Below, one piece after another: positions 1-61,924 of a stretch of 64,000 bases of DNA. A program made the translations under genes and the position numbers. This stretch comes from an uncultured virus (IMG/VR IMGVR_UViG_3300029448_000007). Taxonomy: Duplodnaviria > Heunggongvirae > Uroviricota > Caudoviricetes > Crassvirales. The stretch lies in IMG/VR virus record IMGVR_UViG_3300029448_000007; one strand, given 5' to 3'. The stretch's first letter is position 1, and each line of letters starts with the position of its first letter. The notes under the pieces are model-generated. The model searched no databases, was not told the DNA's origin, and saw only the letters and a program-made list of their open reading frames with translations.

Positions 1-155
1 ACTTCTCCATACACAGCATAAACACTTCCACCTATCCATTTATCTTCATAGCTACTAAGGTCAGAATATTCAATATTTTTCCCATCAGTTACAAGGTATC
101 CAACACTTTTGTCCTTTGGCATACCCACTTCTTTAATACTTCGCCATTTTATCAT
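1..155 (-). CDS. Partial small protein, DUF551-like N-terminus (MIKWRSIKEVGMPKDKSVGYLVTDG...)
   Basis: Hand-translated from ATG at 155; open to window edge; W-x-S-x-K-E-x-x-x-P start resembles DUF551-type phage proteins. Confidence 0.5.
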   Translation of the reverse strand, partial: MIKWRSIKEVGMPKDKSVGYLVTDGKNIEYSDLSSYEDKWIGGSVYAVYGE

Positions 156-200
156 TTTGTACTTGTTTATTTAAGTTCGTATTCCATCTCTCTTTGGTGT

Positions 201-572
201 TTAGTTTACCTTAATCAACTTGTACTTCTCACCATCAATCTCAACTACCTTACCTTCACAGCCTTTAGGTCTGTTGTCTTCAATTTTCCCATTACAGTTT
301 TCAAAGTAGATTTCATTTCCATTGGAATTGAATTCTCTTTTACACCAATACCCATCAGAGTCTTCAAAGTATATTACATTTCCATTGGAATCGAATTCTT
401 TTTTATACCAATTCCCATCAGAGAATTGATAGTATATTACATTTCCATCGGAATCCAATTCTCTTTTCCACCAATGCCCTTCAGAGTCTTCATAGTAGAT
501 TAGATTTCCATTCTTGTCTTTAATTATAAATGGAAACTCTGTTACGTTTAATTGTTGTGCGATTGTTTTCAT
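201..572 (-). CDS. Repeat protein with YxEDSxGxWxKRExDSNGN units (YD-repeat-like), paralog 1
   Basis: ORF track; about four 22-aa repeats; N- and C-termini near-identical to 569-874. Confidence 0.85.
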   Translation of the reverse strand: MKTIAQQLNVTEFPFIIKDKNGNLIYYEDSEGHWWKRELDSDGNVIYYQFSDGNWYKKEFDSNGNVIYFEDSDGYWCKREFNSNGNEIYFENCNGKIEDNRPKGCEGKVVEIDGEKYKLIKVN

Positions 573-874
573 TCGGATATTAGTTTATATTTTTTACCAT
601 CAATCTCAACTACCTTACCTTCACAACCTTTGGGTCTGTTGTCTCTAATTTGCCCATAAGAGTTTTCATAGTAGATTACATTTTCATTGGAATCTAATTC
701 TCTTTTAACCCAATACCCATCAAAGAATTCAGTGTAGATTTCTTTTCTATTGGAATCGTATTCTCTTTTTCTCCAAAACCCCTGAGAGTCTTCATAGTAG
801 ATTTGATTTCCATTCTTGTCTTTAATTTCAAATGGAAAGTCTTTGATGTTTAATTGTTGTGCTATTGTTTTCAT
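569..874 (-). CDS. Repeat protein, paralog 2 (one 22-aa repeat shorter)
   Basis: ORF track; MKTIAQQLN...KGCEGKVVEIDGxKYKL shared with 201-572; 101 vs 123 aa. Confidence 0.85.
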   Translation of the reverse strand: MKTIAQQLNIKDFPFEIKDKNGNQIYYEDSQGFWRKREYDSNRKEIYTEFFDGYWVKRELDSNENVIYYENSYGQIRDNRPKGCEGKVVEIDGKKYKLISE

Positions 875-885
875 TTTTTTGGTGT

Positions 886-1173
886 TTATCGTTTACTACC
901 TGATTGACTTTTTCTGAATTTCTTCAGAGCGTTCTTTCTGTTCAAAGCTGATACATAGTAATAACCTTCTTCGATTATCACCTTCTTCGGAATCGTTTTG
1001 TCTACATTGTAAGCACTTGAATACTTAGCCAAGCTAACTTCTTCTGTTTCTAAATCAACTTTGTACAGAGTGTGTCCTTTGTGTGGGACTATCGTGCCTA
1101 AAAAAGTTTTTTCCTTGCGTTGGTCTTTTTCGGCTTGTTGTTCTATGACAACCTTTGGTTCAAGCTCGTTCAT
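886..1173 (-). CDS. Hypothetical phage protein
   Basis: ORF starts at the ATG of a junction repeat and ends at the next repeat. Confidence 0.8.
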   Translation of the reverse strand: MNELEPKVVIEQQAEKDQRKEKTFLGTIVPHKGHTLYKVDLETEEVSLAKYSSAYNVDKTIPKKVIIEEGYYYVSALNRKNALKKFRKSQSGSKR

Positions 1174-1195
1174 CTCTATTTGGTGTTAGTTGGTG

Positions 1196-1498
1196 TTAGG
1201 CTTCATTGCCTTGAATTTTGTTTTTTATCCAATGACCCATTTCTTCACAGTAAGTTTCTACGGCATCACTTCTTTTGCAATCTTCATCATCTCTAAAAAC
1301 GTAAGAGAAATCAAATGCTTTTTGCTTAATTTCTTCATCAGTAGGCAACGAAAGCCTAACATCAGCTATATTGTATTGCTCGGCATACTTCTTCAATAAG
1401 TCTTTTAGCTTGTATTTAGCTGAGTAATCACCTTCAATAATTGTTTGGGGATGTATTCCCATCTCAGCTAAAAATAGTTCTTCTTTTACTTTAATCAT
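1196..1498 (-). CDS. Hypothetical two-module protein with IADVRLSLP linker
   Basis: ORF bounded by junction repeats; internal inverted box 1344-1360 matches 1195-1210. Confidence 0.8.
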   Translation of the reverse strand: MIKVKEELFLAEMGIHPQTIIEGDYSAKYKLKDLLKKYAEQYNIADVRLSLPTDEEIKQKAFDFSYVFRDDEDCKRSDAVETYCEEMGHWIKNKIQGNEA

Positions 1499-1510
1499 CT
1501 CTCTTTGGTG

Positions 1511-1666
1511 TTAAAGGTCAATTGATTGAATTATTTTTACTGAAAAGATGGTAAACATTATAATAGTAAACCAAAATATTTCTTTGTTAGAAAAAGCTAA
1601 AACACCACCAAAAGTTGGCGGGTCGTTAGGGTCTTCTTTTAGCCATTCAAAAAACTTTTTCATCAT
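1511..1666 (-). CDS. Small membrane protein (MMKKFFEWLKED...FWFTIIMFTIFSVKII)
   Basis: Likely start is the ATG at 1666 just after the repeat; C-terminal hydrophobic helix. Confidence 0.6.
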   Translation of the reverse strand: MMKKFFEWLKEDPNDPPTFGGVLAFSNKEIFWFTIIMFTIFSVKIIQSIDL

Positions 1667-1689
1667 TTTTTTCTCATCTCTCTTTGGTG

Positions 1690-1998
1690 TTAACGGTAAT
1701 TGTCTAAGTACCATTTCCAATGTCCTGCTTTCCATATCGCGGGGTTGTTTTTTTCTTTATTTAGTGTTGGTGGAAAAGAGCTCTCTGCTAAGTGGTACAA
1801 CTTATTTACGTGGTTTTTATGTACACAGTACCATATATCCGCACTTTCCAACTGTTCAATAGATAAACTACCTCTCTCTTTGGTGTTTGGTTTACCTCCC
1901 CAAGCTTTGATAACTGCATCTCTTGTAGGTGATGGCCTCAATCTATTCCACCTATCTATCCAATGTTGCTTTTCTTCTTTAGTCATCTTCGGTTTCAT
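1690..1998 (-). CDS. Hypothetical protein, apparent fusion of two cassettes through an internal junction repeat (PNTKERGS)
   Basis: ORF track; repeat copy at 1871-1887 lies in frame with its ATGA replaced by AGGT. Confidence 0.75.
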   Translation of the reverse strand: MKPKMTKEEKQHWIDRWNRLRPSPTRDAVIKAWGGKPNTKERGSLSIEQLESADIWYCVHKNHVNKLYHLAESSFPPTLNKEKNNPAIWKAGHWKWYLDNYR

Positions 1999-2006
1999 TT
2001 TGCAAA

Positions 2007-2186
2007 TTATATATAGAGTGCAGCCGTAGTTGAAATACTAACTAAGAACCTTAAAAGTATTTTTGGGATTACTTTATTGTCAATATCACTATTGTAATAG
2101 GATATAATCAAATTACCTAATAAAAAAGACGATTGAAATAACCAGAAAGCTGTAATGATTGGGTGTAATACTTCTATGAGTTTCAT
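2007..2186 (-). CDS. 59-aa two-helix membrane protein (MKLIEVLHPIITAFWLFQSS...)
   Basis: Hand-translated; starts at repeat ATG 2186, TAA at 2007-2009; below ORF-track cutoff. Confidence 0.7.
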   Translation of the reverse strand: MKLIEVLHPIITAFWLFQSSFLLGNLIISYYNSDIDNKVIPKILLRFLVSISTTAALYI

Positions 2187-2208
2187 CTCTCTTTGGTGTT
2201 AAAGGGTG

Positions 2209-2499
2209 TTAGCGGTAATGCCTATTACCGTTTTCTTTTATGAATTTATGGTAGTCTTGCTCTAACTCTGCAAGTTCTTCTATGTGGTCTCCACTCGGTG
2301 TATTCTCCCAAATATCCTCAACTAATTTGCATCGGTTACTCCAATAATCTGCTTCCGCACTACCGCTAACATCAGGTATAGAGCAGTTTTTTACTGCTGT
2401 TTCTAACTCTGTAATATACCTTAGTACACTTATTGGAGTGTGCAGGTAATCTTCTTCTGCGTTAGCCTTCCAATAGTTTAAATCTTCTTTGTCTTTCAT
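2209..2499 (-). CDS. Hypothetical two-module protein with CSIPDVSGS linker
   Basis: ORF bounded by repeats; internal inverted box 2357-2370 matches 2208-2221. Confidence 0.8.
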   Translation of the reverse strand: MKDKEDLNYWKANAEEDYLHTPISVLRYITELETAVKNCSIPDVSGSAEADYWSNRCKLVEDIWENTPSGDHIEELAELEQDYHKFIKENGNRHYR

Positions 2500-2522
2500 C
2501 TCTCTTTGGTGTTTGTTATCCG

Positions 2523-2651
2523 TTATGCAAAATGCAGGAAAGGCTTCGTCTGCTCCCAGATTTTCTCTTTGCTTTTTCGATTGTTTACAGTGCGAACCTG
2601 TTATCTTCGATAATCACAGACCTTATTACTAAGTAAACCTGCATAATTCAT
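2523..2651 (-). pseudogene. Decayed cassette gene (MNYAG...RR*QVR...FLHFA*)
   Basis: Frame from repeat ATG 2651 to TAA 2523-2525 is broken by an in-frame TAA at 2601-2603. Confidence 0.4.
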
Positions 2652-2784
2652 ATCTCTTTGGTGTTAAGGGTTAAGTGTCAGCAATCAGAGCAAATACCAA
2701 AATTTCTACAAGATTCTTTGTCTTCTTTATTAGGACATTCATGAAATAGAAAATGTTTGCTTTGCACTTTTGAAGCTTAATCAT

Positions 2785-2994
2785 TCATAAGTTCTTCCTT
2801 ATGGTCAAGAAGAGCATAAGTTCTTCCTTATGGTCAAGAAGAGCATTCAAATCTTTGTACTCAAGAATATCTAAAGCATCATAAAACTCTTTAAATCCTC
2901 CTGCATTCTTTACACTGACAATTCTATACTTATCATTTATCTTGACTAACAAATGATATAAGTAGTCTGTCTCTGCTTTAGCAATTATATGCAT
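2785..2994 (-). CDS. Hypothetical protein, C-terminus altered by 29-bp duplication
   Basis: ORF track. Confidence 0.6.
   Translation of the reverse strand: MHIIAKAETDYLYHLLVKINDKYRIVSVKNAGGFKEFYDALDILEYKDLNALLDHKEELMLFLTIRKNL
2786..2846. repeat. Perfect 29-bp tandem duplication (CATAAGTTCTTCCTTATGGTCAAGAAGAG x2)
   Basis: Direct reading: 2786-2814 and 2815-2843. Confidence 0.95.
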
Positions 2995-3004
2995 CTTGTA
3001 AAAT

Positions 3005-3178
3005 TTAGATGAAATATACTAAAGCTACACCAATTATCATAATGATTAATGAGATGGTATTGTCATAACCTTTTTTGGTATCTGTACCAAAATCAATCAT
3101 CTCATAAATCAGTCTAATACATGACATAATAATTATTATTATGCCAAAGTATTCGAGTATTGCTTTCTGTGTATCCAT
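3005..3178 (-). CDS. 57-aa two-helix membrane protein (MDTQKAILEYFGIIIIIMSC...)
   Basis: Hand-translated; two hydrophobic segments. Confidence 0.65.
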   Translation of the reverse strand: MDTQKAILEYFGIIIIIMSCIRLIYEMIDFGTDTKKGYDNTISLIIMIIGVALVYFI

Positions 3179-3262
3179 AGCTTTAATTAAAAAAAGATAA
3201 GCTGGCAGTGTATCTTGTGATGCTTACCAGCTATCCTTATAGGTTAGTTAACCCTTAAACTC

Positions 3263-3511
3263 TCAAGAATTTGTCCAAGAAATAAACCGTACTTCAGTAC
3301 TATCACTCTCGTGATGGAACTTATTGTGGTTTACCTTGTAGTTGAACTTTTCTTTTAACAGACGAATGGTTCTATTGTCAAGATGTTTCTCAACGCGAAG
3401 CATAGTAAAACCTTCACCATGTCGCTTTGCGATATCTTTTTCAATAGCATCGATCTCTTTTTTAACAGAGGCTACTTTTAAAGCAGCCTCGTTAGCACCA
3501 GTTCTCTCCAT
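3263..3511 (-). CDS. Hypothetical protein
   Basis: ORF track; TAATG coupling to upstream gene. Confidence 0.75.
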   Translation of the reverse strand: MERTGANEAALKVASVKKEIDAIEKDIAKRHGEGFTMLRVEKHLDNRTIRLLKEKFNYKVNHNKFHHESDSTEVRFISWTNS

Positions 3512-4065
3512 TACGCTGTAAGCTCACGAGATTGAACAGTAGCATCAGCAAGAAGCTCTTGCTTGATATCGCTCTCGTTGTACTCAGTCATAGAGATCTC
3601 AGACCTTGTACCCTTAGTCATGTCAACAATCTCTTCAGCATGCTCATCGTTGAAAGAAAGCAAAGTATTTCTGAAGATTGGCTTGTTGTCAATCATAATC
3701 ACCATATCGTCTCCGTCTTGTACTGGACGAGCCTTAGGTGTCTGCAACTGCATCTCACCATCAGAACCTACCCAACTTCTTGGAGTATGTGATTCTTGAA
3801 CAACAATGTCCATTGTCTCAACACCAAACTGATCTGCAGTAAGCTCAAGACCATCCTCAGGGATAACTTGGTCAAGACCATACTCAGAAATGTTTGCACG
3901 GTTCATAGGAACCCATGCAAGTCTGCGGTTCTTTGATACATTGGGATGTCCTTTCATAAGAATTCCAATGGAAGTCTTTTGAGGAACCTCTTGCATAAGA
4001 GTTAGACGAACAACTTCTGGGTTTCTTGTGTCTGTAATTTCGAGAAGTTTTACTGGATTTTCCAT
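3511..4065 (-). CDS. Conserved-looking crAss-like protein, possible ssDNA-binding protein
   Basis: 184 aa, beta-rich, DNKPIFRNT motif, acidic C-terminal part; function is a guess. Confidence 0.45.
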   Translation of the reverse strand: MENPVKLLEITDTRNPEVVRLTLMQEVPQKTSIGILMKGHPNVSKNRRLAWVPMNRANISEYGLDQVIPEDGLELTADQFGVETMDIVVQESHTPRSWVGSDGEMQLQTPKARPVQDGDDMVIMIDNKPIFRNTLLSFNDEHAEEIVDMTKGTRSEISMTEYNESDIKQELLADATVQSRELTA

Positions 4066-4231
4066 AGTTTTTGTTTTTGGTATTTAGAATAACCTTTCTT
4101 CGTTTAAGACATTCATATCGTGGTCATCTGGAAGGTGCCATGCCCTGAATGTTTTATCATCACAATAGAACTTGCTATTGACGATAACTATGTAAAAGAT
4201 GCCAAATTTGACTATCTTAAACTTTGTTGGG

Positions 4232-4546
4232 TCATCCTTTCCGCTTTTGTTCTTTGTTTTTAAGCGGAGTTCTTTCAAAAGTTGTCTCAACATACTTAGA
4301 TGTTTTAATGAACTTGGTGAATTCGTCAAAGCTCTCTTGAATAACTCTGCCTTTGGCATTCCAAGAGGATTCTTTTTCGTTCTTCACCATAAACATGAAG
4401 ATGTCACAAATTTCTTCGTGGTCATCCTCATTAAAACCCATATTGTCTAGGTATTTACGAATACCATAAACTTTAGAATTTTTTGTTTCAAACATGTTCA
4501 GTGCTTTTAACATTAACTTGTTGCTCAACGTACATTCTGTTGGCAT
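4232..4546 (-). CDS. Hypothetical protein
   Basis: ORF track; start uncertain (overlaps 4488-4733). Confidence 0.6.
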   Translation of the reverse strand: MPTECTLSNKLMLKALNMFETKNSKVYGIRKYLDNMGFNEDDHEEICDIFMFMVKNEKESSWNAKGRVIQESFDEFTKFIKTSKYVETTFERTPLKNKEQKRKG

Positions 4547-4733
4547 AGTCCATATGCCTGAACAGATAATCTCTGAGTTCTTTCTTCACATGTGGATGTG
4601 CATTTTTTAAGGTGGATATTAGGCTACTCACAAATTCATCGTCAGTCCTAAGACTTTTCCATGCATCTTTAAGATCAGATTCTTCTAATTCACTGATGCG
4701 ATTCTTAATTGTTCCTTTGATAGCGGTGTTCAT
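4488..4733 (-). CDS. Hypothetical protein
   Basis: ORF track. Confidence 0.7.
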   Translation of the reverse strand: MNTAIKGTIKNRISELEESDLKDAWKSLRTDDEFVSSLISTLKNAHPHVKKELRDYLFRHMDYANRMYVEQQVNVKSTEHV

Positions 4734-4748
4734 GTTACTTAAATTTAG

Positions 4749-4824
4749 TTGCGGTTGAGGAATCGAACCTCGGAGGAGAAGCTATCTCAAACGGCTCATG
4801 AGACCGTCTCTGACCAACACCGCA
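4749..4824 (-). tRNA. Aberrant tRNA-like element, anticodon CAT, no D-arm, long variable arm
   Basis: TGCGGT/ACCGCA acceptor, ACGGT-CTCATGA-GCCGT anticodon arm, GAGA-TAGCT-TCTC variable hairpin, GAGG-TTCGATT-CCTC T-arm; only ~10 nt where the D-arm should be. Confidence 0.7.
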
Positions 4825-4892
4825 TTTAAAAAATCAAAGTTTACTTAATTCCCGTGTTTGTTCTGATTTGAAAATTCCCACAATACCATTAC

Positions 4893-5138
4893 TTAGTACT
4901 TGTATACATCGTTACCATTCTTATGGATTGCTCCATTCCCCTTGTACTTCAAACCTCCATCTTCATCTTCATACCACTCATCATCAAATGCTTCTCGAAT
5001 GACAGTACATAAAGATTTCCATGATGAGTCATCAGAAATTTCATTAAACTCCTCTAGTAATAGATTCTCACTTGAAGCTTCTACTATAAAATACGTCCCA
5101 GACGGGTACAATCCCTTTCTACACAGATACTTTTTCAT
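4893..5138 (-). CDS. Hypothetical acidic protein
   Basis: ORF track. Confidence 0.7.
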   Translation of the reverse strand: MKKYLCRKGLYPSGTYFIVEASSENLLLEEFNEISDDSSWKSLCTVIREAFDDEWYEDEDGGLKYKGNGAIHKNGNDVYKY

Positions 5139-5186
5139 GTTTCTTTCTTTTTTTTATTAACTGTTTATCTTCAAGCAAAGATTTAG

Positions 5187-5260
5187 TACACTCGATAGGA
5201 TTCGAACCTATGACCGTCTGCTTAGAAGGCAGATGCTCTATCCAACTGAGCTACGAGTGT
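5187..5260 (-). tRNA. trnR: tRNA-Arg (anticodon TCT)
   Basis: Perfect cloverleaf: ACACTCG/CGAGTGT, GCTC/GAGC, TCTGC-CTTCTAA-GCAGA, ATAGG-TTCGAAT-CCTAT; CCA not encoded. Confidence 0.97.
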
Positions 5261-5267
5261 GGTAATC

Positions 5268-5549
5268 TTAAATTATTTCAGCGTCATTGAAATCTTGATA
5301 GTCAACAAGATTACCGTTAATTGAATAAATTATTCCAGTGAATTTGATTTGACAATCTATGTTCACTGCAGAACAAAAGGCAGCTATTGCTTGTAACGAT
5401 TCGTTACTTACATTTTCACCACCATCAGCTTCAAGACACATGAAACTAAGGTGATTAATAGTGAAGCCTATTCTTAAGACAAAAGTAATGAGCATCATTT
5501 TTTTTTCATCCGTTAAAGTCCACGGACTTTTGAATTCAATCTTGACCAT
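5268..5549 (-). CDS. Hypothetical protein
   Basis: ORF track; preceded by a junction-repeat variant. Confidence 0.7.
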   Translation of the reverse strand: MVKIEFKSPWTLTDEKKMMLITFVLRIGFTINHLSFMCLEADGGENVSNESLQAIAAFCSAVNIDCQIKFTGIIYSINGNLVDYQDFNDAEII

Positions 5550-5574
5550 TTTCTTGGTGTTAAAGGTTAGTAAA

Positions 5575-7957: not shown

Positions 7958-8185
7958 TTAGAATAAATCTTCTGTCAGATGGTCCATGAGACCAACGGTT
8001 CCAAGAAAACCACCAACTGTAAACAGGAAGGTTACAATTTGCATGTTTTCTATTACCTCCATGAAAGGGAATGAACCAAAGCTTGCCAACCAAGTGATGC
8101 CGACGGCAATCATAGGAAGTGAGGCAATCAATGTCCAAACAAACAGAAAGACAACAGCTAAACGGAGTGCTTTTTTCACACGCAT
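7958..8185 (-). CDS. Small early membrane protein
   Basis: ORF track; two hydrophobic segments; ~26 nt below the conserved motif. Confidence 0.8.
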   Translation of the reverse strand: MRVKKALRLAVVFLFVWTLIASLPMIAVGITWLASFGSFPFMEVIENMQIVTFLFTVGGFLGTVGLMDHLTEDLF

Positions 8186-9033: not shown

Positions 9034-9215
9034 AAAGAGTAAGCAGAAAAAATAACTACCCTTTGTTTTTGTAATGACTCTGCTAGCAAGCTGGCTTAGT
9101 AACAGAGCGCCGAAGTAACTTTCGATACGCAAAGTTACGACTTATTTTTTGACGAGTCAAGTATTTTTTTAAAAAAATATAACAGGATATATGTATAGTT
9201 TATAATATTCTTTGT

Positions 9216-9223
9216 TATATTTG
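9216..9223 (+). promoter_or_regulatory. Bacteroidota -7 promoter element TATATTTG
   Basis: Exact TAnnTTTG, 4 nt before ATG 9228. Confidence 0.65.
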
Positions 9224-9227
9224 CAAA

Positions 9228-9536
9228 ATGGATAAAGCATTACGTTACAATGAGGGTAAACCAAGGTGGTCTCTCGTTGATTTCAAATCCTTAGAAGGGA
9301 TGGTAAGAGTATTAGAGTTTGGCGCACAGAAATATGATAAAGACAATTGGAAGAAAGGTGAGCACACATCTAAGATATGTGAATCACTACTTCGTCATCT
9401 GTTTGCACACATGTCAGGTAAACGTATTGATGAGGAATCTGGACTTTCCCACATTGATCATGTCGCTTGTAATGTAATGTTCTTGTCTTATATGACTAAT
9501 CAAAAACCTGAATTCGATGACATCCCAAAAAAATAA
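9228..9536 (+). CDS. dATP/dGTP diphosphohydrolase-domain protein (DUF5664-like)
   Basis: RYNEGKPRWSL, VLEFGAQKY..NWKKG, SLLRHL, DEESGLSHIDHVACN motifs. Confidence 0.9.
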   Translation: MDKALRYNEGKPRWSLVDFKSLEGMVRVLEFGAQKYDKDNWKKGEHTSKICESLLRHLFAHMSGKRIDEESGLSHIDHVACNVMFLSYMTNQKPEFDDIPKK

Positions 9537-12375: not shown

Positions 12376-14576
12376 CACCAGTTACAGAAGAATTATTCAA
12401 AAAGTACAAGCTGGATAATGACTCTGTAAATGAGTTCTACGACCTGTTTGATACCGTACCTCTTTTAAAGAGTATGTCGTCTAAAGACAGGGTTTATGCA
12501 AAAGACTTACCTAGAGAAAACAGTAAGATTACAGTAGACCTTACAAATCCTCACATCTTAGAGGACATGGACTACTTTAGACAAGCTGCCTTGCATTTTA
12601 AAAAAACAGGCAGGTATACAAACTTTTACCCTACTAAATTAAAAAGCTCTGACTACTATAAGTTCTGGAAAGAAGAAGAGCGCAGATGTAAAGAAGGGTA
12701 TGTAAGAGAATCAGATGGGGAGTGGATTACGGGGTATCATTACTTCTACCTCAACTACACACCCATTATGATCACAAGAGAATCAGACAATACCAAAGAG
12801 GTTGATGATATATCAACGGTAGAAGCTGAGAGAATACAAGAGTTTCCATTTATGTGGGATGGTGATTACCTATACTTTCACTACATAGAACAAGCCAAAA
12901 AGTCTGGTAAGTTCGGCTCTATCTTAAAAACAAGGGGTCGTGGATACTCCTTTAAGGGTGGTTCAAAGTACGCAAGAAACTACTATCACTACCCAAGATC
13001 TAAGTCATATGCGTTTGCCTCTGATAATCAGTACCTTCTGCAAGATGGTATCCTAAACAAAGCTTGGGATACTTTGGACTTTGTAGATGAGCACACTCCA
13101 TGGGGTAAGGCTAGAGAAAAAGTAGACAAGATCGACCATAAAAGAGCATCGTATGTTACAAAAGTAGATGGTGTTCAAATTGAAAAAGGATATAAATCTG
13201 AAATCATAGGTGTCACTACCAAAGATGACCCTGACAAAGCAAGAGGTAAACGTGGAATGTTGATATCTTGTGAAGAATCTGGTAATTATCCACACTTACT
13301 GCAAGTATGGAAGATTGCATACGGTTCTATGAAGCAGGGTCGTATGGTTTACGGATTCATGGAGTCATTCGGTACAGGTGGTACCAGTGGAAGTGGCTTC
13401 GAAGGTGCAGAAGCTTTGTTTTACAATGGTGGTTTTAATGTATTCCATATAAAAAACATTTTCGATAGAACCAAAGGACAAGGTATTTGTGCATTTTATG
13501 TAGGAGAGTACTTAAACAGAGAATATTGTTACGACAAAGATGGGAACTCTGACGTAGTAAAAGCTATGTGTGAGGTTCTAAACGAACGTCAGGACATACG
13601 AAATACAAACCCAGACCCATCTATACTTACTAAACATAAGGCGGACTATTCTATAACCCCTCAAGAAGCTTGTATGCGGACGGAGGGGACTTTATTTCCC
13701 ATCTATGATCTAAGAGAGTATTTACAATCAATAGCTCCTGTATTGGACTCTTTTACAGCTGCTCACCTAACACCCAAACTAAATATAGACGGTAGTATTG
13801 GTGACAAAGACCACGAGATTCCTATACGAACTTTCCCTTTGTCTTCAGAACAGTCTAAGATTGGTGCTATTGAAATCTTTACACCACCTCTAAAGTCAAA
13901 CAGTTCACACTTTAGATACATCATTGGTGTTGACCCATACGATGATGACGAGGCTACGTTCTCAAAATCATTGGGTTCTGCCTTTGTGTTTGATACTTGG
14001 ACAGACGAAATTGTTGCAGAGTACACAGGTAGACCAAGATTTGCAAATGATTTCTATGAAGTTGTACGAAGATTGTCGCTTTTGTATCAAGCTAAAGTAA
14101 ATTACGAAAACAAGAACAAAGGTTTGTTTTCATACTTTGACCAAAAACATTCGTTGCATTTGTTGGCTGATACTCCTAAGATACTGATTGACAAAGAGAT
14201 GGCTCGAGAATCCTATGGTAACAAAGCCAAGGGTACTCCACCTACAAAAGAAATCAACAGATGGGGTAGAAGATTACAGAGAGATTGGATGCTCTCAGAC
14301 CATCACTCAACAACCGAAGATGAGAAAGTATTTAACCTTCAAAAGATTCGTTCTATTGCTTATCTAAAAGAAGCAATACAATGGAATAGTGATGATAACT
14401 TTGACCGCGTGTCATCTATGGGTATGGTCATGATATTAAGAGAAGAGTATCATCAGATGGTAGAATCTGAGAAAACAAGGACAAATGTTTCTACACTTTC
14501 TGACGATCCATTCTGGACTAAAAATAATAAAGCTTTACGCTATAAGAAATTACGCGAACAAGCAAAACTGTCTTAA
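12372..14576 (+). CDS. terL: Terminase large subunit
   Basis: ITGYHYFYLNY, LKTRGRGYSF Walker A, CEESG Walker B, FGTGG, IIGVDPYD nuclease, NFDRVSS. Confidence 0.95.
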   Translation: MTPVTEELFKKYKLDNDSVNEFYDLFDTVPLLKSMSSKDRVYAKDLPRENSKITVDLTNPHILEDMDYFRQAALHFKKTGRYTNFYPTKLKSSDYYKFWKEEERRCKEGYVRESDGEWITGYHYFYLNYTPIMITRESDNTKEVDDISTVEAERIQEFPFMWDGDYLYFHYIEQAKKSGKFGSILKTRGRGYSFKGGSKYARNYYHYPRSKSYAFASDNQYLLQDGILNKAWDTLDFVDEHTPWGKAREKVDKIDHKRASYVTKVDGVQIEKGYKSEIIGVTTKDDPDKARGKRGMLISCEESGNYPHLLQVWKIAYGSMKQGRMVYGFMESFGTGGTSGSGFEGAEALFYNGGFNVFHIKNIFDRTKGQGICAFYVGEYLNREYCYDKDGNSDVVKAMCEVLNERQDIRNTNPDPSILTKHKADYSITPQEACMRTEGTLFPIYDLREYLQSIAPVLDSFTAAHLTPKLNIDGSIGDKDHEIPIRTFPLSSEQSKIGAIEIFTPPLKSNSSHFRYIIGVDPYDDDEATFSKSLGSAFVFDTWTDEIVAEYTGRPRFANDFYEVVRRLSLLYQAKVNYENKNKGLFSYFDQKHSLHLLADTPKILIDKEMARESYGNKAKGTPPTKEINRWGRRLQRDWMLSDHHSTTEDEKVFNLQKIRSIAYLKEAIQWNSDDNFDRVSSMGMVMILREEYHQMVESEKTRTNVSTLSDDPFWTKNNKALRYKKLREQAKLS

Positions 14577-14585
14577 TTTTGTAAT

Positions 14586-16928
14586 ATGTCGGTAAAATAC
14601 TGGGGTTTTCCATCACAGAAGAAAACTACTGCACAGCGTACCAAAGATTGGTACAAAGAGTGTATAGACGCATTTGACTCATCAGGTCTTTCATCAGATG
14701 AGGCGGTGCGTTCTTCTTTTACGAGGAAACAAATAAACTACAATCTTTACAACGGTCGCCTTGATATGGCGGACGTAAGAAGTTTTGTAAATCCCTATGA
14801 CCTTGAAACTGAGGAGATTCCAGAAAAAATCGAACACTTCCCAATAGCTGTACCTAGAATAGACCTTCTTATTGGAGAATCTATCAAAAGAAGATTTGAC
14901 TGGACAGTATTGGTTTCTGACCCCGACTCTGTTTCTTCAAAGCAAGAAGAAAAGAGATCTCTGATTTTTGAAAGGGTACAAGAACTTGTGAACAGTAATT
15001 ATACTGAATCACAGCTCCAAGAGAAAGTAAAAGAATTGGAGCATGAGGCCTTGTACACTTTTAAAGACAGAAAAGAAATAAGAGGAAATAAGCTTCTTAG
15101 ACATTTCTGGAACAAACAAAAGTGGGATCAAAAGTTTGCTGATGGGTTTAAAGATGCTCTTATCTCATCAGAAGAACTCTATATTGTTGATGTCGTTGGT
15201 GATGAACCCATCCTCAATAGGCTTAACCCACTGAATGTCTTTTGGTTACGCTCTGGATTTTCACACGACATTGAAGATGCTGATGTAATTTATGTTGATG
15301 AGTACTGGTCACCTGGTAAGATCATTGACTATTTCTACGAAGACCTAACACAAGAAGAAGTTGAAAAGCTTGAAAGAGGATTCAACAACGGTGGTGGTAG
15401 TGACCCATTCGTAGACGAGAGTGCCCAGTACAATCTTATTATTGACAGAAACATTGGTAGCACCACACCAAGCGATGTAAACGATTATACGATGCGTATG
15501 GGGTCTCAAGGGTATAAGACCCTTCCTTACGATCAAAACGGCAACATACGCGTCTTAAGAGCTTTCTGGAGGTCTTTTAGAAAGGTTAAGCTTGTCAAGT
15601 ACTTTGATGAGTTTGGTGCACCACAAGAAGATATATTCCCTGATAACTATTCACCCGACAAAGATAAAGGTGAAACAGCTCGTTCTATGTGGATCAACGA
15701 GTGGTTAGAAGGTACTCGTGTAGGCTCAGATATTTATATTAGAATGAGACCTAGACCTATTCAATATAACAAACTATCAAATCCATCGTATTGTCATCCT
15801 GGTATTGTAGGTTCGACTTATGCAACTAACTCGTATACGGCTGTTTCTATGATGGAGCGCACAAGGCCATATCAATACTTGTATGATATCTATATGGACA
15901 GACTCAATAAGATGTCTGCTAAAAACCAAGGTAGAATTCTAGAGTTAGACCTCAGCATGATTCCAGATGGTTGGGATATGGCTACTTGGATGCACTATTT
16001 GTCTTCTATGAATATTGCTGTCAAAGACAGTTTTAAAGAAGGTAAGGTAGGACCAGCCACAGGAAAGCTTGCGGGTAATCTAGGACACGCTGGACATAGT
16101 TATATTGACTTACAGAATTCACAATATATTCAGGAACATATTGGCATATTGCAGTTTATTAAAAGAGAAATGACTGAGATCATTGGTGTATCTGACCAAC
16201 GTCTCGGACAAATCGATACAAGAGAAACTGTTGGTGGAGTTGAGCGTTCTGTAGCACAGTCTTCACATGTTACTGAATATTACTTTCACAAGCATGAAAA
16301 TGTCCGTGAAAGAGTATTACAGATATTCCTTGAAACTTGTAAAAAAGTATTTAGAGGAAAAGAAAAGCTACTCCAGCATGTATTGGATGATGGTTCAGTA
16401 GAGATGTTTAAGATTGAAGGTAAGGGACTCGAAGCAGAGTTTGATGTACACATTCAATCTTCATCTAAATCTGCAGAGCTTGACGCTACATACAGGGAGA
16501 TGGCTAAGCTTGCATTCCAGTCCAACAAAGTTTCTCTCGATGTTTTAACCAAGCTTCTCACATCAGATTCTATGTCTGAGAAGAGACGCGTCATAGAAAA
16601 CGCAGAGAGACAAGCACAAGCACAGCAAGAAAGGCAGATGGAAAATCAACAGCAGATGGCACAACAACAAATGCAATCAGAACAACAAGCTGTTGATAAA
16701 GAAATTGCTGCCAAAGAAAGAATGAACATTAGAGATAATGAAACCAAACTTGCTTTAAAACAAAATAATGTTTCAGAACTTGGTGATTTCTATGACAAGC
16801 TTGAAGAACAGAAGCGTGAATTTGATGAAACTCTTAGACAAAAAGATAAGCACCACGCTGATAAAGTGAAGCTTGAGGAAAAGAAAATGGCTATTACGCC
16901 TGAAAACAAATCTGAAAATAAATCATAA
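14586..16928 (+). CDS. Portal protein
   Basis: 780 aa after terL; FPSQK, NYNLYNG, PYQYLYDI, GVSDQRLGQI..RETVGGVERSV..SS crAss-type motifs; Gln-rich tail. Confidence 0.93.
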   Translation: MSVKYWGFPSQKKTTAQRTKDWYKECIDAFDSSGLSSDEAVRSSFTRKQINYNLYNGRLDMADVRSFVNPYDLETEEIPEKIEHFPIAVPRIDLLIGESIKRRFDWTVLVSDPDSVSSKQEEKRSLIFERVQELVNSNYTESQLQEKVKELEHEALYTFKDRKEIRGNKLLRHFWNKQKWDQKFADGFKDALISSEELYIVDVVGDEPILNRLNPLNVFWLRSGFSHDIEDADVIYVDEYWSPGKIIDYFYEDLTQEEVEKLERGFNNGGGSDPFVDESAQYNLIIDRNIGSTTPSDVNDYTMRMGSQGYKTLPYDQNGNIRVLRAFWRSFRKVKLVKYFDEFGAPQEDIFPDNYSPDKDKGETARSMWINEWLEGTRVGSDIYIRMRPRPIQYNKLSNPSYCHPGIVGSTYATNSYTAVSMMERTRPYQYLYDIYMDRLNKMSAKNQGRILELDLSMIPDGWDMATWMHYLSSMNIAVKDSFKEGKVGPATGKLAGNLGHAGHSYIDLQNSQYIQEHIGILQFIKREMTEIIGVSDQRLGQIDTRETVGGVERSVAQSSHVTEYYFHKHENVRERVLQIFLETCKKVFRGKEKLLQHVLDDGSVEMFKIEGKGLEAEFDVHIQSSSKSAELDATYREMAKLAFQSNKVSLDVLTKLLTSDSMSEKRRVIENAERQAQAQQERQMENQQQMAQQQMQSEQQAVDKEIAAKERMNIRDNETKLALKQNNVSELGDFYDKLEEQKREFDETLRQKDKHHADKVKLEEKKMAITPENKSENKS

Positions 16929-23555: not shown

Positions 23556-23580
23556 TATTTGTACTTATTTAAAAAAAATT

Positions 23581-23865
23581 ATGGACTACAGAGACATTGT
23601 TAAAGGGATTACTAACTTCTTTAGTAATTCATTCGGACAAAATACATCTTTTATTGTAGACTCAAGCAATCCTCTTACAAGTGCTGGTGGTGAATACACA
23701 GTACTTGAAGTCCTTGAAGATGCTGCTGGTGTATCTATCACAGACGCTAATCTTTCAGGAGGTGCTGCATATCCAACAGATATGACCACTGGTTTTAGAA
23801 CTTATGGTAAGTTTACAGCTGTTTCTTGCACTGGTGGAAAGATTAAAATGTATAAGTCAAGATGA
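23581..23865 (+). CDS. Small beta-rich structural protein (MDYRDIVKG...)
   Basis: Start moved to ATG 23581; TATATTTG at 23554-23561. Confidence 0.7.
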   Translation: MDYRDIVKGITNFFSNSFGQNTSFIVDSSNPLTSAGGEYTVLEVLEDAAGVSITDANLSGGAAYPTDMTTGFRTYGKFTAVSCTGGKIKMYKSR

Positions 23866-45814: not shown

Positions 45815-45869
45815 CATATATGTAGTTTCTGTTATATCTATAATCTAATCTATTAATAAATTTGCAATT

Positions 45870-47267
45870 ATGGCGAAATATAGAAAGTATGAACCCTCTA
45901 GAAACTATATGTCTGGTGGAGGAATTGGCTCAGCAGCAGGTGCTATTTTAGGAAGTATTATTCCTGGCGTAGGTACCGCAATTGGTGGTAGTGTAGGTGG
46001 TATGCTTGGTAATATCATAAGTCCTAACAAACAAGAAATTCAACAGCCACCAAGACCTATTGAACCAACAATGAGATTTGAGATGGGTGGTATGCTAACA
46101 CCTATTGAAGCTGGTGGTAGTCATAGTGAAAACGGACTAGGTGGTGTACCCATTGGAAACAATGCTTCTGTAGAGCAAGGAGAAACAATGACAGAAGATT
46201 TTGTTTACTCTGACAAACTCAAAATCAATAAGACTCTTGCTAAAGAGTTTTCTCTTCCTAAGTCAACGATAGGTAAAACATTTGCTCAAGCATCTAAGTC
46301 ACTTACTATTGACCAAGAAGATGTTATCTCACAACGAGGTAATGAAAGAACATTGAATCGTATTGCAGAAGCTCAAGAAGCTTACAAGCAATCCTTTGGA
46401 AATAAGTATTATCAGAACGCTGCACAGCAAAATAATGAATTACCCGTTGCGCAATATGGTTTAGATATGCGACAACTTAATATGCCTTCACAACCTGTTT
46501 TCAATCCTTTAGATCCTATGGGTTTTGATAGAACAGCAAACCTAAATTTAAATCTGCAAGTTCCAAATTTGACAGGTACTGAAAATATTCAAACTCCCGA
46601 ACAATCTGCAGTAACTCCAGAGGTAGGATCAGATGTAGCATCAGATACCTCTTTGAGTACAGCTAGTTTTAGTCCTTTGAGATATGCGCCTCTTGGTGCT
46701 GATGTATACTCATTGGCTACAGCAGAAAGACCAGAACCAATGGATGCTTCAAGATATCAACAGTTTGGTACATTCACTGAAAACCTTGTTGACAGATCAC
46801 AAATGAGAAAAGGTGTTATGGATACAGCGTCTACAACAGCAAATTATTTGAGAGAAGCTTCTGGTGGTAATGCTTCTTTGTTCAATGCTATGATGCAAAG
46901 TGGTAGCACAGGAACTCAAAGAACTATGGGTGAGCTTTCAATGCAAGCTGACATGCAAGATGCTCAAGAAAAAGCAAGAGTTGAGGGTCTAAAAAATAGG
47001 CAGCAAGCAATGAATACTCAGATTCAACAACAAATTGATATTCAGAATCAGCAAGATCTAGCTGCTTATAATAATATGATTCAAGATAGTGTTGTTAATC
47101 TTGCACAAAATGTTGGTAACATTGGTACAGAACAGACTCGTATTAGTCAAGTAAATCAATTGTTTGGTTATGATGTTCACGGACAGTATAAGCAAGCTAA
47201 AAAAGATGGAGCTACTGATAAGTCTTTTCTTGAATACGCCAAAGGATTACTAGGAAATTTAGTTTAA
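45870..47267 (+). CDS. Ejected cargo protein 1
   Basis: Gly-rich TM-like N-terminus, GGSHSENGLGGVPIG, VEQGET, YSDKL, Gln-rich. Confidence 0.8.
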   Translation: MAKYRKYEPSRNYMSGGGIGSAAGAILGSIIPGVGTAIGGSVGGMLGNIISPNKQEIQQPPRPIEPTMRFEMGGMLTPIEAGGSHSENGLGGVPIGNNASVEQGETMTEDFVYSDKLKINKTLAKEFSLPKSTIGKTFAQASKSLTIDQEDVISQRGNERTLNRIAEAQEAYKQSFGNKYYQNAAQQNNELPVAQYGLDMRQLNMPSQPVFNPLDPMGFDRTANLNLNLQVPNLTGTENIQTPEQSAVTPEVGSDVASDTSLSTASFSPLRYAPLGADVYSLATAERPEPMDASRYQQFGTFTENLVDRSQMRKGVMDTASTTANYLREASGGNASLFNAMMQSGSTGTQRTMGELSMQADMQDAQEKARVEGLKNRQQAMNTQIQQQIDIQNQQDLAAYNNMIQDSVVNLAQNVGNIGTEQTRISQVNQLFGYDVHGQYKQAKKDGATDKSFLEYAKGLLGNLV

Positions 47268-47271
47268 AAAA

Positions 47272-50094
47272 ATGGCTGTAGTTAATAGATTTTCACAGAG
47301 GCGGAATTACGCTACGTTTAATCCTATGTCTATGCAGGAGCTTATGGTAGTTCCTCAGTATAGACAGCAACAACACGATTATGCAGAAGCGTTAGCCGAA
47401 GCTCAAAAGACAGAAGGTACTGTTTTATCTCCAGATAAAGAAAAGTTTGCACAAGGCGCTAATGAGATAAATAAAGGTATTACAACTTTAGTAGATGACC
47501 TTACTGAAAAAGGTTTACAGTCTAATACTCTTTCTAATGTCCGCAGTCTTAAAAAGAAAAGAGAAGATTTCTTAGATCCTACTACTGGTTTTGGAGGAAG
47601 AGCTCTTGCTAACTATGCACTTTATCAACAAGGTGTTAAGGATATGGAAGAGATGCGTAAGACAGGTGATTATCTAGAAAGAGATCTTACTAACTCTATG
47701 ATACTATCTCTTAATAGATATGAAGGTGTTGATGCTGGTGATACTTTTGACATGTATAATCCATCTCGATATGTAGATATGGGAAAAAAGACTCTTGAGA
47801 TTTTAGATAAAGTTCCCATTCAAGAAATAGAAACTGCTTTAGGATTGCAAGAAATTGGATTTGATCCTCAAACAGGAAATAAAATTTATCAGCATGGTTC
47901 TACAGTAATTAAAGAGCGTTCTAAAGAACATCAAATGTTGGTTGCTCAACAGTTCTTAAATAACGATCCTGAAGTTCAAGCTTATCTAAACGACCAAGCA
48001 ACATTTGCTCAAGAACTCCATTCAACTATTGAAGAAGAGTCTGGAAGTATTATTTATGGGGATAAATATTTTAACCCTTCTACATTTAAAGATCAGTTTA
48101 TTCAAGGTAAGATTTTGAATATTGCTACAATGGGTGCTGAAGCTACAGATGTTCGAAATGTTTCACAAGATTTAGATTATAAGTTTGTCAAAGCTTCAGA
48201 AGCTTATGCTAGAGCTTGGAGAGAAGCTCATATGCCAGATTCTAAGTCTACAACAACTGGTGGTATGGATGAAAATAAAAGCTTAGGTGATGTTAACTAC
48301 CTTGATGATCTTGCACAAAATCCAAAATATACATTAGTAGGTAAAGATCAAAGTGAAGAATTTACTACTACTAAAAAAGGAAAGTATCCTTCAGGTCTAT
48401 CTAGAAAACAATTTTTAGAATATCAAAAACAAATAGGTGAAAAGCCATATACAGAATATAGTGGTTTAAACACTGGTAGATTTGCATATGAAAGATATTG
48501 GTTTGAAGACCATTTTCCAAATCTTTCAGACCCTGGTTATGAAGTAGGTGACCAAACAGAAACGGAAAAATTAGTTGTTAGAAATCAAGGTGCTGAAACT
48601 TTACAAGATTTTAGAAATATATGGAAAAGAAAAACAAAAGATACTGAATACGAAAATTGGCCTGAACAAGCTGTAGATAAGTTATATGAACATATGACTA
48701 GTAGAGATGGTCTTTTACTTGATAGTGAAGATGGATTAGGAACAGCGCGTCCTGTAAGAGAAGCTTTAGGTAAACCTAGTACTGAGTTTATGGCTTTTGG
48801 ATTTGGTTCAGAAGGTGATATTACTACAGAATCTGTTACAAGAGCAATAGATAATACTGCAGAAGCTGTTACAAAAGGAGTTTCTTCAATAGGAGGTACT
48901 AGTGTAGGAGGATTGGTAAGTGGTGCAATATTACGAACCGATTTAACTATTGCTTCTGATTCAGATAAAAGTATGTTCAAATATCATATGAGTGGTAAGG
49001 ATATTCAAAATATCTTAGGTCTTAAAGCTCAAAGAATGAGTGAAGAAGATTTTAATGCTCATACATTAATGAATAATCAAATGGTTAGACAAAACTTTGA
49101 AGCATTTCAAGTAAGTCATCCTAATGTTAGTTTTGAAGATTGGAAAGAATTAGAAGAAACTAGATTGAAAAATAGTGGTCAAGTTGAAACAATATTAGAA
49201 GGTAAGCAAAACATTCCATCAAGTAATACCACTATAAATAATATGTTGGATACTAAATCGCTTAGTGGTTTAACTGGATATGATATTTCAATTGAAAGAT
49301 TCACTGACAGTCGTATGGAAGATATTGCTACTACTGGTGGACAATTTATTGACGCTCTTAAAGATATTGGTGAAATTGAAAGTATTAGTTACCCTTTGAG
49401 AATTCGTGAAGATGGTGATTACACTAAAATTGGAGGTTATCAATTTAATGTAACAAATAAAGACGGTACTATCTTTAGAATAAAAACACAACCTTTGGTA
49501 AAAGAAGAGGCTTCTGTTCTTGTTCCTTTACAAAGATTAGGGCAAGCTTGGAATAACTCAACAGGTGTACAACTTCCTTCAACTGTAGGTCAAGATAATG
49601 TAATACGAAGTGAACAAATGGTTGTTGGAGAAAAAGGTAAGAATGGATGGGTAGGTACAGATGGTGCTTATATGTTGGATATTAATAGATTGATGGAAAC
49701 TGGTTTTATAAATGAAAATATTATTTCAAGAGGTAGTGTTATAGAAGCTGATTATTCTCCTTTTAATACTTATGGTAGAGGAGGAGATTTCCAAAATAGA
49801 GGTATTAAAAAATATTATATTATAGACCCTAACGGTGTAAAGAAACCATTAATTGATCCAACTCTTTATGATCAAACTCTTATGACGGATGATTATAAAA
49901 GACAACAAGTTGAAGCTGGTAACCTTAAACAAGAAGATTTAGTAAACGAAGAAGGTCTTAATGTTTTAAGAAGTTTGATGATGAATAGAAAAGATTTCCA
50001 TCGATATATAGAACAAAAATCAAATCTTGATTTGATTCAACAAACTATATACTCACCAGCTATTGATCAACGTAAAATAAATCCTCAGCAATAA
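47272..50094 (+). CDS. Ejected cargo protein 2
   Basis: 940 aa; NRF...FNPMSMQEL start; synteny. Confidence 0.7.
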   Translation: MAVVNRFSQRRNYATFNPMSMQELMVVPQYRQQQHDYAEALAEAQKTEGTVLSPDKEKFAQGANEINKGITTLVDDLTEKGLQSNTLSNVRSLKKKREDFLDPTTGFGGRALANYALYQQGVKDMEEMRKTGDYLERDLTNSMILSLNRYEGVDAGDTFDMYNPSRYVDMGKKTLEILDKVPIQEIETALGLQEIGFDPQTGNKIYQHGSTVIKERSKEHQMLVAQQFLNNDPEVQAYLNDQATFAQELHSTIEEESGSIIYGDKYFNPSTFKDQFIQGKILNIATMGAEATDVRNVSQDLDYKFVKASEAYARAWREAHMPDSKSTTTGGMDENKSLGDVNYLDDLAQNPKYTLVGKDQSEEFTTTKKGKYPSGLSRKQFLEYQKQIGEKPYTEYSGLNTGRFAYERYWFEDHFPNLSDPGYEVGDQTETEKLVVRNQGAETLQDFRNIWKRKTKDTEYENWPEQAVDKLYEHMTSRDGLLLDSEDGLGTARPVREALGKPSTEFMAFGFGSEGDITTESVTRAIDNTAEAVTKGVSSIGGTSVGGLVSGAILRTDLTIASDSDKSMFKYHMSGKDIQNILGLKAQRMSEEDFNAHTLMNNQMVRQNFEAFQVSHPNVSFEDWKELEETRLKNSGQVETILEGKQNIPSSNTTINNMLDTKSLSGLTGYDISIERFTDSRMEDIATTGGQFIDALKDIGEIESISYPLRIREDGDYTKIGGYQFNVTNKDGTIFRIKTQPLVKEEASVLVPLQRLGQAWNNSTGVQLPSTVGQDNVIRSEQMVVGEKGKNGWVGTDGAYMLDINRLMETGFINENIISRGSVIEADYSPFNTYGRGGDFQNRGIKKYYIIDPNGVKKPLIDPTLYDQTLMTDDYKRQQVEAGNLKQEDLVNEEGLNVLRSLMMNRKDFHRYIEQKSNLDLIQQTIYSPAIDQRKINPQQ

Positions 50095-61906: not shown

Positions 61907-61924
61907 AATTAGTAAATTTACAAA

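Follow-up and report, generated by a model that had tools for sequence, protein, structure and literature searches.

The stretch of DNA analysed here, 64,000 nucleotides of an uncultured virus (IMG/VR record IMGVR_UViG_3300029448_000007; the window in what follows), carries at one end a block of small genes joined by copies of a 17-bp repeat, CATCTCTCTTTGGTGTT on the plus strand. The genes from about position 8185 down to position 1 lie on the minus strand and the repeat, referred to below as the motif, has the same coding direction; read in this sense it is AACACCAAAGAGAGATG and its 3' end is a start codon. The window belongs to a crAss-like phage, with matches for terminase, portal and major head protein and with the Pfam crAss ring, muzzle, auxiliary capsid and cargo proteins. 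The features of the array are as follows.

185-201, minus strand: first motif copy, exact; its ATG (187-185) opens only 6 codons, with the start of the next gene at 155, and at its 5' end it is overlapped by the TAA of gene 201-572.
201-572 and 569-874, minus strand: two tandem paralogous small genes of 123 and 101 amino acids with an ATGA overlap and no motif between them.
872-886, minus strand: motif copy in degenerate form, CATTTTTTTGGTGTT, from which gene 569-874 starts; gene 886-1173 ends here with its TAA at the usual -15 position.
886-1173, minus strand: cassette gene of 95 amino acids with a weak match to PHROG 21065.
1171-1198, minus strand: motif copy with one mismatch and the upstream echo TAACACCAAC, which contains the stop of gene 1196-1498.
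1196-1498, minus strand: cassette gene of 100 amino acids with no known family match.
1496-1517, minus strand: exact motif copy with the extended 5' part CCTTT.
1511-1691, minus strand: cassette made of the exact motif copy 1675-1691 and a gene of 51 amino acids; a 4-codon mini-reading frame overlaps the real start at 1666.
1690-1998, minus strand: open reading frame (ORF) of 102 amino acids with the internal motif copy 1871-1887, read as NTKER.
2007-2186, minus strand: cassette gene of 59 amino acids.
2184-2211, minus strand: exact motif copy with the extended CCTTT and the echo TAACACC, which contains the stop of gene 2209-2499.
2209-2499, minus strand: cassette gene of 96 amino acids.
2497-2513, minus strand: exact motif copy.
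2514-2665, minus strand: motif copy 2649-2665 with one mismatch, then only a 16-codon ORF and about 85 geneless nucleotides; likely a decayed cassette.
5547-5568, minus strand: outlying degenerate copy AACCTTTAACACCAAGAAAATG before gene 5268-5549.

An original prediction for this stretch had counted nine copies between 185 and 2665, five of them exact, and the count is borne out: exact copies begin at 185, 1496, 1675, 2184 and 2497, copies with one mismatch at 1171, 1871 and 2649, and the ninth, at 872-886, is degenerate. With up to one mismatch, 8 copies of CATCTCTCTTTGGTGTT are found in the window where 0.21 are expected, and none of 100 shuffled sequences reached 8. The weaker copy ahead of gene 5268-5549 is a tenth, and beyond these ten no further copy was found in the 64 kb. 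The core TTTGGTGTT occurs nine times on the plus strand, always inside 193-2665, and once on the minus strand, at 3820 (expected 1.04). The motif is thus limited to the small-gene block at one end of the window, and the GC content of the array shows no difference from its surroundings.

The motif is positioned at gene starts. Eight of the nine copies stand at gene junctions, as had been claimed; the exception, 1871-1887, lies within ORF 1690-1998, where the ATG is mutated to AGG and one added base restores the frame. This ORF looks like an in-frame fusion of two cassettes and is preceded by a promoter-like box, TATAATTTGCAAAATG, rather than by the motif. The claim that each gene gains a standard start from the repeat applies to most genes, but the ATG of the motif is itself the true gene start in only five of the nine copies (genes of 59-101 amino acids); at 185, 1675 and 2649 it opens only 6, 4 and 16 codons, respectively, and the real gene starts slightly downstream. 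The stop of the upstream gene is found within or just ahead of the motif in seven of the nine copies, at -15 in four of these and at -21 to -25 in three, and some copies lie after separate promoter- or terminator-like intergenic elements. Similarity had been said to stop at GGTGTT on the plus strand. This is not always so: the copies at 1496, 2184 and 5547 continue with AAAGG and that at 2649 with AAGGG.

A search for the motif found the exact 17-mer in at least 123 stretches of public viral contigs, often several times per contig at a spacing of 130-500 bp, while the reversed 17-mer gave no match in viral contigs. The junctions outside the window form a set of 227 unique sequences. In the 227, conservation extends beyond the 17-mer used in the search: positions -22 to -15 read AAACCTTT at 64-91%, eight more conserved bases than had been recognised, and position +4 is A at 96%. 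No conservation was found farther out than -22 to +4. The extended coding-strand form is therefore (AAACCTTT)AACACCAAAGAGAGATG(A), about 26 bases, and it holds one start codon and two stops, since the TAA of TTTAAC at -15 is in the frame of the ATG and the ATGA supplies a TGA in the +1 frame. The motif ATG opens an ORF of at least 40 amino acids in 71% of the 221 closed cases compared with 28% of 1140 control ATGs; the ORFs behind the motif have a median of 55 amino acids, and 27 of the 221 are of fewer than 20 codons. Of 163 junctions, 67 have the stop of the upstream ORF at the overlapping TGA and 25 have it at the TAA at -15; 35 lack a long ORF upstream, and in the others the position of the stop varies. 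Echoes of the motif occur in the window at 1180-1200 and 2195-2215 just as originally described. Their interpretation as scars of repeated insertion does not generalise, the AACACC echo being found upstream in 12 of 234 related junctions against 28 of 234 downstream.

The letters of the motif are identical whichever upstream frame is used. Where it is translated, the common variants, C/A at -12 and G/A at -1, alter the amino acid, whilst the third-codon positions (-9, -6 and -3) are fixed at 97-100%. The constraint is therefore on the nucleic acid and not on a peptide. The motif holds no GGAGG and no Shine-Dalgarno sequence, and TAnnTTTG or TTTG-type boxes are absent from it, though present elsewhere in the window. 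It is also unstructured: there is no recurrent inverted repeat at the copies, and 14 single-strand DNA folds (71 nt, both strands, seven copies) were no better than shuffles, with minimum free energies of -0.7 to -5.2 kcal/mol and z scores of -1.86 to +1.34. It matches no Rfam family of known RNAs. Pairing with 16S rRNA is not supported, since the best predicted duplexes do not surpass those formed by shuffles of the motif (a fraction of 0.08-0.28 of the shuffles equals or falls below the observed value with the whole rRNA, and 0.5-0.64 with the 3' tail). The 3' end of the 16S rRNA of the sampled Flavobacteriaceae, GGAACACCTCCTTTCT (loci L148-L150), contains AACACC in the same sense as the motif, an agreement near chance (~0.06 by a rough count).

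The junctions are mosaic. We compared 141 pairs of junctions from different loci that share a flank at 80% identity or more. Five pairs agree on both sides, 79 on the upstream side only and 57 on the downstream side only. The other flank is unrelated in 136 of the 141, compared with 10 of 41 and 10 of 35 at two control points within the downstream genes (31/10/0 and 25/9/1 for both flanks, upstream only and downstream only). Junctions in relatives thus almost never retain both neighbours, which supports the idea of a shuffled, cassette-like array in a crAss-like phage. The two common variants of the motif separate between the flanks (figures to be taken as indicative). The -12 variant tracks the upstream flank, with a mismatch of 0.13 against 0.33 in unrelated pairs and 0.27 in pairs sharing the downstream flank only; the -1 variant has a weak tie to the downstream flank (0.23 against 0.32) and none to the upstream flank (0.37). 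Since the variants are split in this way, the exchanges fall between -12 and +4, that is, inside the core.

Individual cassettes show the same pattern. The window cassette 1495-1691 matches positions 165-347 of locus L098 at 83%, exactly from motif to motif, and the neighbours are different. Cassettes of a second motif-bearing record, G005, match other contigs at 75-98% in cassette-sized pieces that end at motifs, and loci L008 and L043 contain relatives of both window and G005 cassettes. Relatives of the tandem genes 201-572 and 569-874 stand behind the motif in L008, L043, L057, L064/L065 and L121. Their products have an internal repeat of the type YYEDSxGxWxKRExDSNGN that gave no family assignment, and a homologue at 40% identity is found in the Verrucomicrobia phage P8625.

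Contigs of three DNA runs from three studies (X2, X4 and X6) and of one RNA-library run were compared with positions 1-5000 of the window; these were assembled contigs, not reads. The small genes without the motif, to the right of 2817, are represented by longer contigs that differ little from the window, by a single contig in X2 (2817-4468, 1652 nt, 3 differences) and in X6 (3339-4749), and in pieces of 0.5-1.0 kb in X4. On the left of this position, contigs have the size of cassettes and their ends coincide with motif copies (878-1140, 1170-1518, 1172-1512, 2007-2200 and 2184-2513), with loose ends at 201, 871/878, 1506, 2181-2184, 2205-2211, 2514 and 2671, and 15-32% of the aligned contigs continue into unlike sequence. 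One X2 contig is identical across 2184-2513 and divergent beyond, and position 2184 has at least three different downstream neighbours. Exact tracts shared between unrelated junctions reach 23 nt or more in 20% of 23,988 pairs and 31 nt or more in only 0.4%, so that the repeat alone should rarely break a 31-mer assembly. The contig breaks therefore reflect real heterogeneity, and some of the divergent contigs may come from other phages sharing cassettes. Separately, a 29-nt tandem duplication lies at 2786-2843, at the 3' end of gene 2785-2994; the contigs of all three DNA runs break within it, at 2815/2817, and one RNA-library contig is without one of its copies.

The motif is spread across phage families. 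Besides the crAss-like phage of the window, the carriers are a myovirus and phages with Terminase_3-type terminases, the latter at many motif-bearing loci. The myovirus, G005, has 21 motif copies in two one-strand clusters and is identified by a tail sheath, a T4-type terminase and portal and capsid families of its own. A 63-kb record rated complete, G006, has a portal and a terminase of the same PHROGs as those of the window. The capsid protein of the window has no match in four of the five long records and its terminase is 24% identical to that of G003; the nearest record, G001, begins at window position 10398 and is therefore uninformative on the array. No close relatives were found among viral contigs through the 184-residue protein 3511-4065. 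In GenBank phages, a 39-nt motif query gave chance-level partial matches in 14 records, none spanning the motif block, and searches of cultured and GenBank phages with two cassette proteins yielded at most a homologue in a Verrucomicrobia phage.

The host is probably a marine member of the Flavobacteriaceae, to judge from a binned contig and from TAnnTTTG-like boxes ahead of several starts in the window. The 22-mer matches only two genome contigs, both phage-like or tiny, and 401 Flavobacteriaceae genomes gave 12 matches with up to one mismatch against 19 for the reversed control, which is no enrichment; a host-wide signal was rejected on these grounds. The binned contig is of 248 kb, and a 16-kb sample of it (L128, G007:C1:4000-20000) looks phage-like, with a tRNA gene cluster, an amidase that includes a peptidoglycan-binding domain, and motif copies followed by small genes; the contig is possibly a large phage binned with its host. 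The boxes are found 4-5 nt ahead of the ATG, for example at 9210-9230, 14570-14588, 23560-23583 and 45850-45872. They resemble what we take to be the consensus of Bacteroidota-type promoters, which suggests promoters of this kind with very short leaders.

Genes for recombination proteins are frequent near the motif in relatives. Within 3 kb of it, in 69 related loci, a DUF3799 exonuclease of the PD-(D/E)XK type was found in 21 and a YqaJ exonuclease in 4 (one or the other in 25 of the 69), Erf annealing proteins in 3 and HNH endonucleases in 4. The original prediction had suggested a search for a tyrosine recombinase or a single-strand-annealing protein; the annealing protein is present, in the form of Erf, in 3 of the 69 loci, and Erf paired with a DUF3799 exonuclease stands next to the arrays in, for example, L003, L030 and L054, but the 133 ORFs of 180 amino acids or more taken from the same regions yielded neither an integrase nor a tyrosine recombinase. 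These 133 are the longest of 246 ORFs of at least 130 amino acids, after those with identical first or last 40 residues were dropped.

From these results, we consider it probable that the repeat is a translation junction associated with the starts of small accessory genes and serves at the same time as short homology by which recombination shuffles these genes. As RNA, the motif would be an unstructured, A-rich leader without a Shine-Dalgarno site and carrying the start codon; ribosomes leaving the upstream gene would stop 0-15 nt from the next start and restart there. The stop-start proximity at the 67 junctions with ATGA and the 25 with TAA at -15 is a feature of translational coupling and is consistent with such a restart. 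As DNA, the identical 15-26 bp at each junction could act as short homology, and recombination between junctions, within a genome or between co-infecting phages, would delete, insert or swap whole genes. An exchange in register would leave each gene joined to a working start. The enzymes would probably be phage pairs of a single-strand-annealing protein and an exonuclease. In the extracts available of De Paepe et al. 2014 (PMC3945230), Red-beta, RecT and Erf, together with exonucleases, are described as recombining short and diverged homology, and minimal pairing segments of 23-27 bp for Red-beta and 31-34 bp for RecA are quoted. The strict retention of 26 bases could possibly reflect concerted evolution via the recombination itself or a sequence-specific reader.

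Several points weigh against this account. The junction pairs are phylogenetically non-independent, which makes the variant and flank figures indicative only, and the motif occupies the entire intergenic space, so that breakpoints at gene borders and at the motif are not fully separable. No cassette is directly common to the window and G005, the link between them being via L008 and L043 only. The copies in the window share at most 23 exact bases, usually 15-20, which is marginal for homologous recombination, and, as had been noted originally, no recombinase is visible in the window, where the 62 ORFs hold no integrase, tyrosine recombinase or other recombinase domain. Motif-to-motif joints in the metagenome contigs (e.g. 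1518>2177 and 1197>2493) have a short side of 21-30 letters, which is the motif itself, and are therefore not counted as precise deletions, and bins without cover were likewise disregarded; no recombination intermediate was seen in the assembled contigs of the four runs. A generic translation leader needs no 26 conserved bases, and a sequence-specific factor may be involved.

More tentatively, and with less than even confidence, we propose that the motif is a universal adaptor across phage families, in that unrelated phages of the same marine Flavobacteriaceae keep the same start-codon junction of 15-26 nt. Single-strand-annealing recombinases would then move ready-to-express ORFan genes among crAss-like podoviruses, a large myovirus and Terminase_3-type phages. 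Co-infection would be the occasion of exchange, and the outcome would be a shared commons of gene cassettes, maintained by selection on expression and on exchangeability alike.

Another explanation, which we regard as unlikely, is that the motif is an expression signal only, such as a translation leader, a binding site for an RNA- or DNA-binding regulator of phage or host, or an RNA-processing site, and that it travels with each gene as its 5' end, the mosaic being ordinary gene flux selected to fall at gene borders. The position on the start codon, the lack of structure and the 26 strictly conserved bases, which suggest a sequence-specific reader, agree with this, as does the fact that breakpoints at gene borders are expected in any phage and that the contigs hold no intermediate. 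However, the -12 variant segregates with the upstream flank and the -1 variant strongly with neither, which places exchanges within the conserved tract. The motif block is also found in cassette-sized contigs with divergent ends when the motif-free region 2817-5000 is in longer ones (1.4-1.7 kb in X2 and X6, 0.5-1.0 kb in X4), and unrelated phage families with the same letters are unlikely to share a private regulator. It is improbable that the copies act as promoters, recognised by an RNA polymerase of the phage or by a sigma factor of the host, from which short-leader or leaderless transcripts start and which make every small gene a transcription unit of its own, as T4 early promoters do. 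An element of about 26 bp that is strongly conserved, directional, next to the ATG and repeated every 150-500 bp would be in keeping with this; as to early promoters of the crAss-like virion RNA polymerase, a preprint on phi14:2 reports no detectable common motif upstream of its early transcripts (10.1101/2020.03.07.982082). On the other hand, in the 67 junctions with ATGA, the upstream ORF reads through the motif to the overlapping TGA, as is typical of coupling inside an operon. The motif lacks the presumed TAnnTTTG consensus that precedes other starts of the window, some copies follow promoter- or terminator-like elements of their own, and the motif is common to phages with different transcription machinery, myovirus and crAss-like.

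The original prediction favoured an integron-like capture platform, with a site-specific recombinase cutting within GTT and circular cassettes being inserted and excised. The directional repeat at cassette borders, the two echoes in the window and the strongly shuffled neighbourhoods speak for this idea. The attC site of an integron, an imperfect inverted repeat, forms a fold in single-stranded DNA, and the crossover is fixed between the G and the TT of the core site. Neither property is found here: inverted repeats do not recur at the motif copies, whose single strands form no stable fold, the -12 base that corresponds to the G goes with the upstream flank, the exchange points are spread over the core rather than located at G|TT, and conservation continues for 8 bases past GTT. 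Given in addition the want of an integrase or tyrosine recombinase in the window and in the 133 ORFs, and of any enrichment of echoes, we consider this reading very improbable; a start-associated repeat, which the same prediction had offered as its own alternative, fits the anatomy better. We give almost no credence to the idea that the motif is conserved because it codes for a peptide, ..TFNTKER, at the C-terminus of the upstream proteins (perhaps a tag). Translation does run through the motif in the TFNTKER frame as far as the overlapping TGA in the 67 junctions, and NTKER lies inside ORF 1690-1998, but these junctions are only 41% of the total. The same letters are present in the 25 that stop before the core and the 35 without an upstream ORF, and variants that change the amino acid, combined with fixed third-codon positions, are the reverse of a constraint at the protein level.

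Among known systems, the closest by anatomy is that of the start-associated sequences (SAS), with an extended form (ESAS), of Cluster K mycobacteriophages, which were reportedly described by Pope et al. in 2011. In the passages available from a later paper (PMC12699233), the SAS consensus GGGATAGGAGCCC contains a ribosome-binding site, is often accompanied by 17-nt inverted repeats (ESAS) and belongs to one phage cluster. Both the SAS and our motif are, on this partial account, short conserved sequences at many gene starts, mostly outside the structural module. The motif differs in its sequence, in having no inverted repeats, in including the ATG, in crossing families and in being tied to mosaic breakpoints. 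By proposed role, the closest system is that of the promoter-early stem-loops (PeSLs) of T4-type phages, which are described in the extracts available as regulatory repeats flanking ORFans in hyperplastic regions and are proposed, and partly shown, to be homologous recombination sites for cassettes of motif plus ORFan, with crossovers near the ATG (Arbiol et al. 2010, PMC2839356; Comeau et al. 2014, PMC4122927). Our motif likewise flanks ORFans in a hyperplastic region and coincides with breakpoints of indels and replacements. The definition of a PeSL does not apply to it, however, since those extracts define a sigma-70 early promoter plus a stem-loop terminator with a Shine-Dalgarno site, whereas the motif has none of these and holds a start and two stops. 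PeSLs are known, in the same extracts, within T4-like myoviruses and are linked to excised mini-circles, whereas the motif array occurs in crAss-like phages, a myovirus and Terminase_3-type phages and is known here from assembled contigs only.

In the modular theory of lambdoid phage evolution, linker or boundary sequences join the modules. They resemble the motif as short conserved sequences between functional units that act as exchange points; the boundary sequences are few and are not one repeated word, whereas the motif is one word at almost every junction of the array. The relaxed recombination by Red-beta, Erf or RecT with exonucleases, as set out in the extracts of PMC3945230, has its counterpart in the Erf and exonuclease genes beside many arrays. 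Integrons are similar in that their single-gene cassettes follow one another in a directional array with a repeat at the border of each, and differ in the hairpin attC, the integrase, the fixed G|TT and the position of the repeat, at the 3' end of the gene instead of the 5' start. The letters of the motif were found in no paper of the literature searched, nor was it described among conserved start or junction motifs in Flavobacteria or marine phages. What is new is the combination of stop, leader and start in one word, for a type of host without Shine-Dalgarno sites, and the occurrence of the same word in unrelated phage families.

Phage accessory genes (for host takeover and anti-defence, and ORFans) turn over fast, and how they move unbroken is only partly understood. 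The present case is unusually clean, with one stop-leader-start word at nearly all junctions, in at least three unrelated types of marine phage, and exchange points inside it. If the motif is both a translation adaptor and a recombination linker, the old idea of linker sequences becomes testable in phages of Bacteroidota, crAss-like phages included, and the motif would offer a simple sequence tag with which to locate the mobile pool of accessory genes in marine viromes. The motif also bears on how phages are translated in hosts that do not use Shine-Dalgarno sites.

Two further elements recur next to the motif in related loci. A pair of the form TAGGCGCA..N10..TAGGCGCA lies directly before it where there is no upstream ORF (for example in L009, L020, L034, L041, L046, L067, L069 and L070) and may be a promoter or regulator site heading arrays. 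The other is an insert of some 40 nt that recurs downstream of the motif, ahead of the following gene (examples in L043, L052, L063, L064, L071, L074, L099 and L113), and contains a mini-ORF (MSRCTPHR-stop), then a near-palindrome and a new ATG; it occurs with many different flanks and may be a mobile promoter or operator module. Elsewhere in the window, a tRNA-Arg (TCT) at 5186-5260 on the minus strand stands among small minus-strand genes and is 91-96% identical to tRNAs in the motif-bearing loci L005 and L127/L128. In the region 47272-64000, four ORFs are very large (940, 1711, 2225 and more than 691 amino acids) and match neither Pfam nor PHROG; by their position they are probably the crAss-like cargo and virion RNA polymerase proteins.

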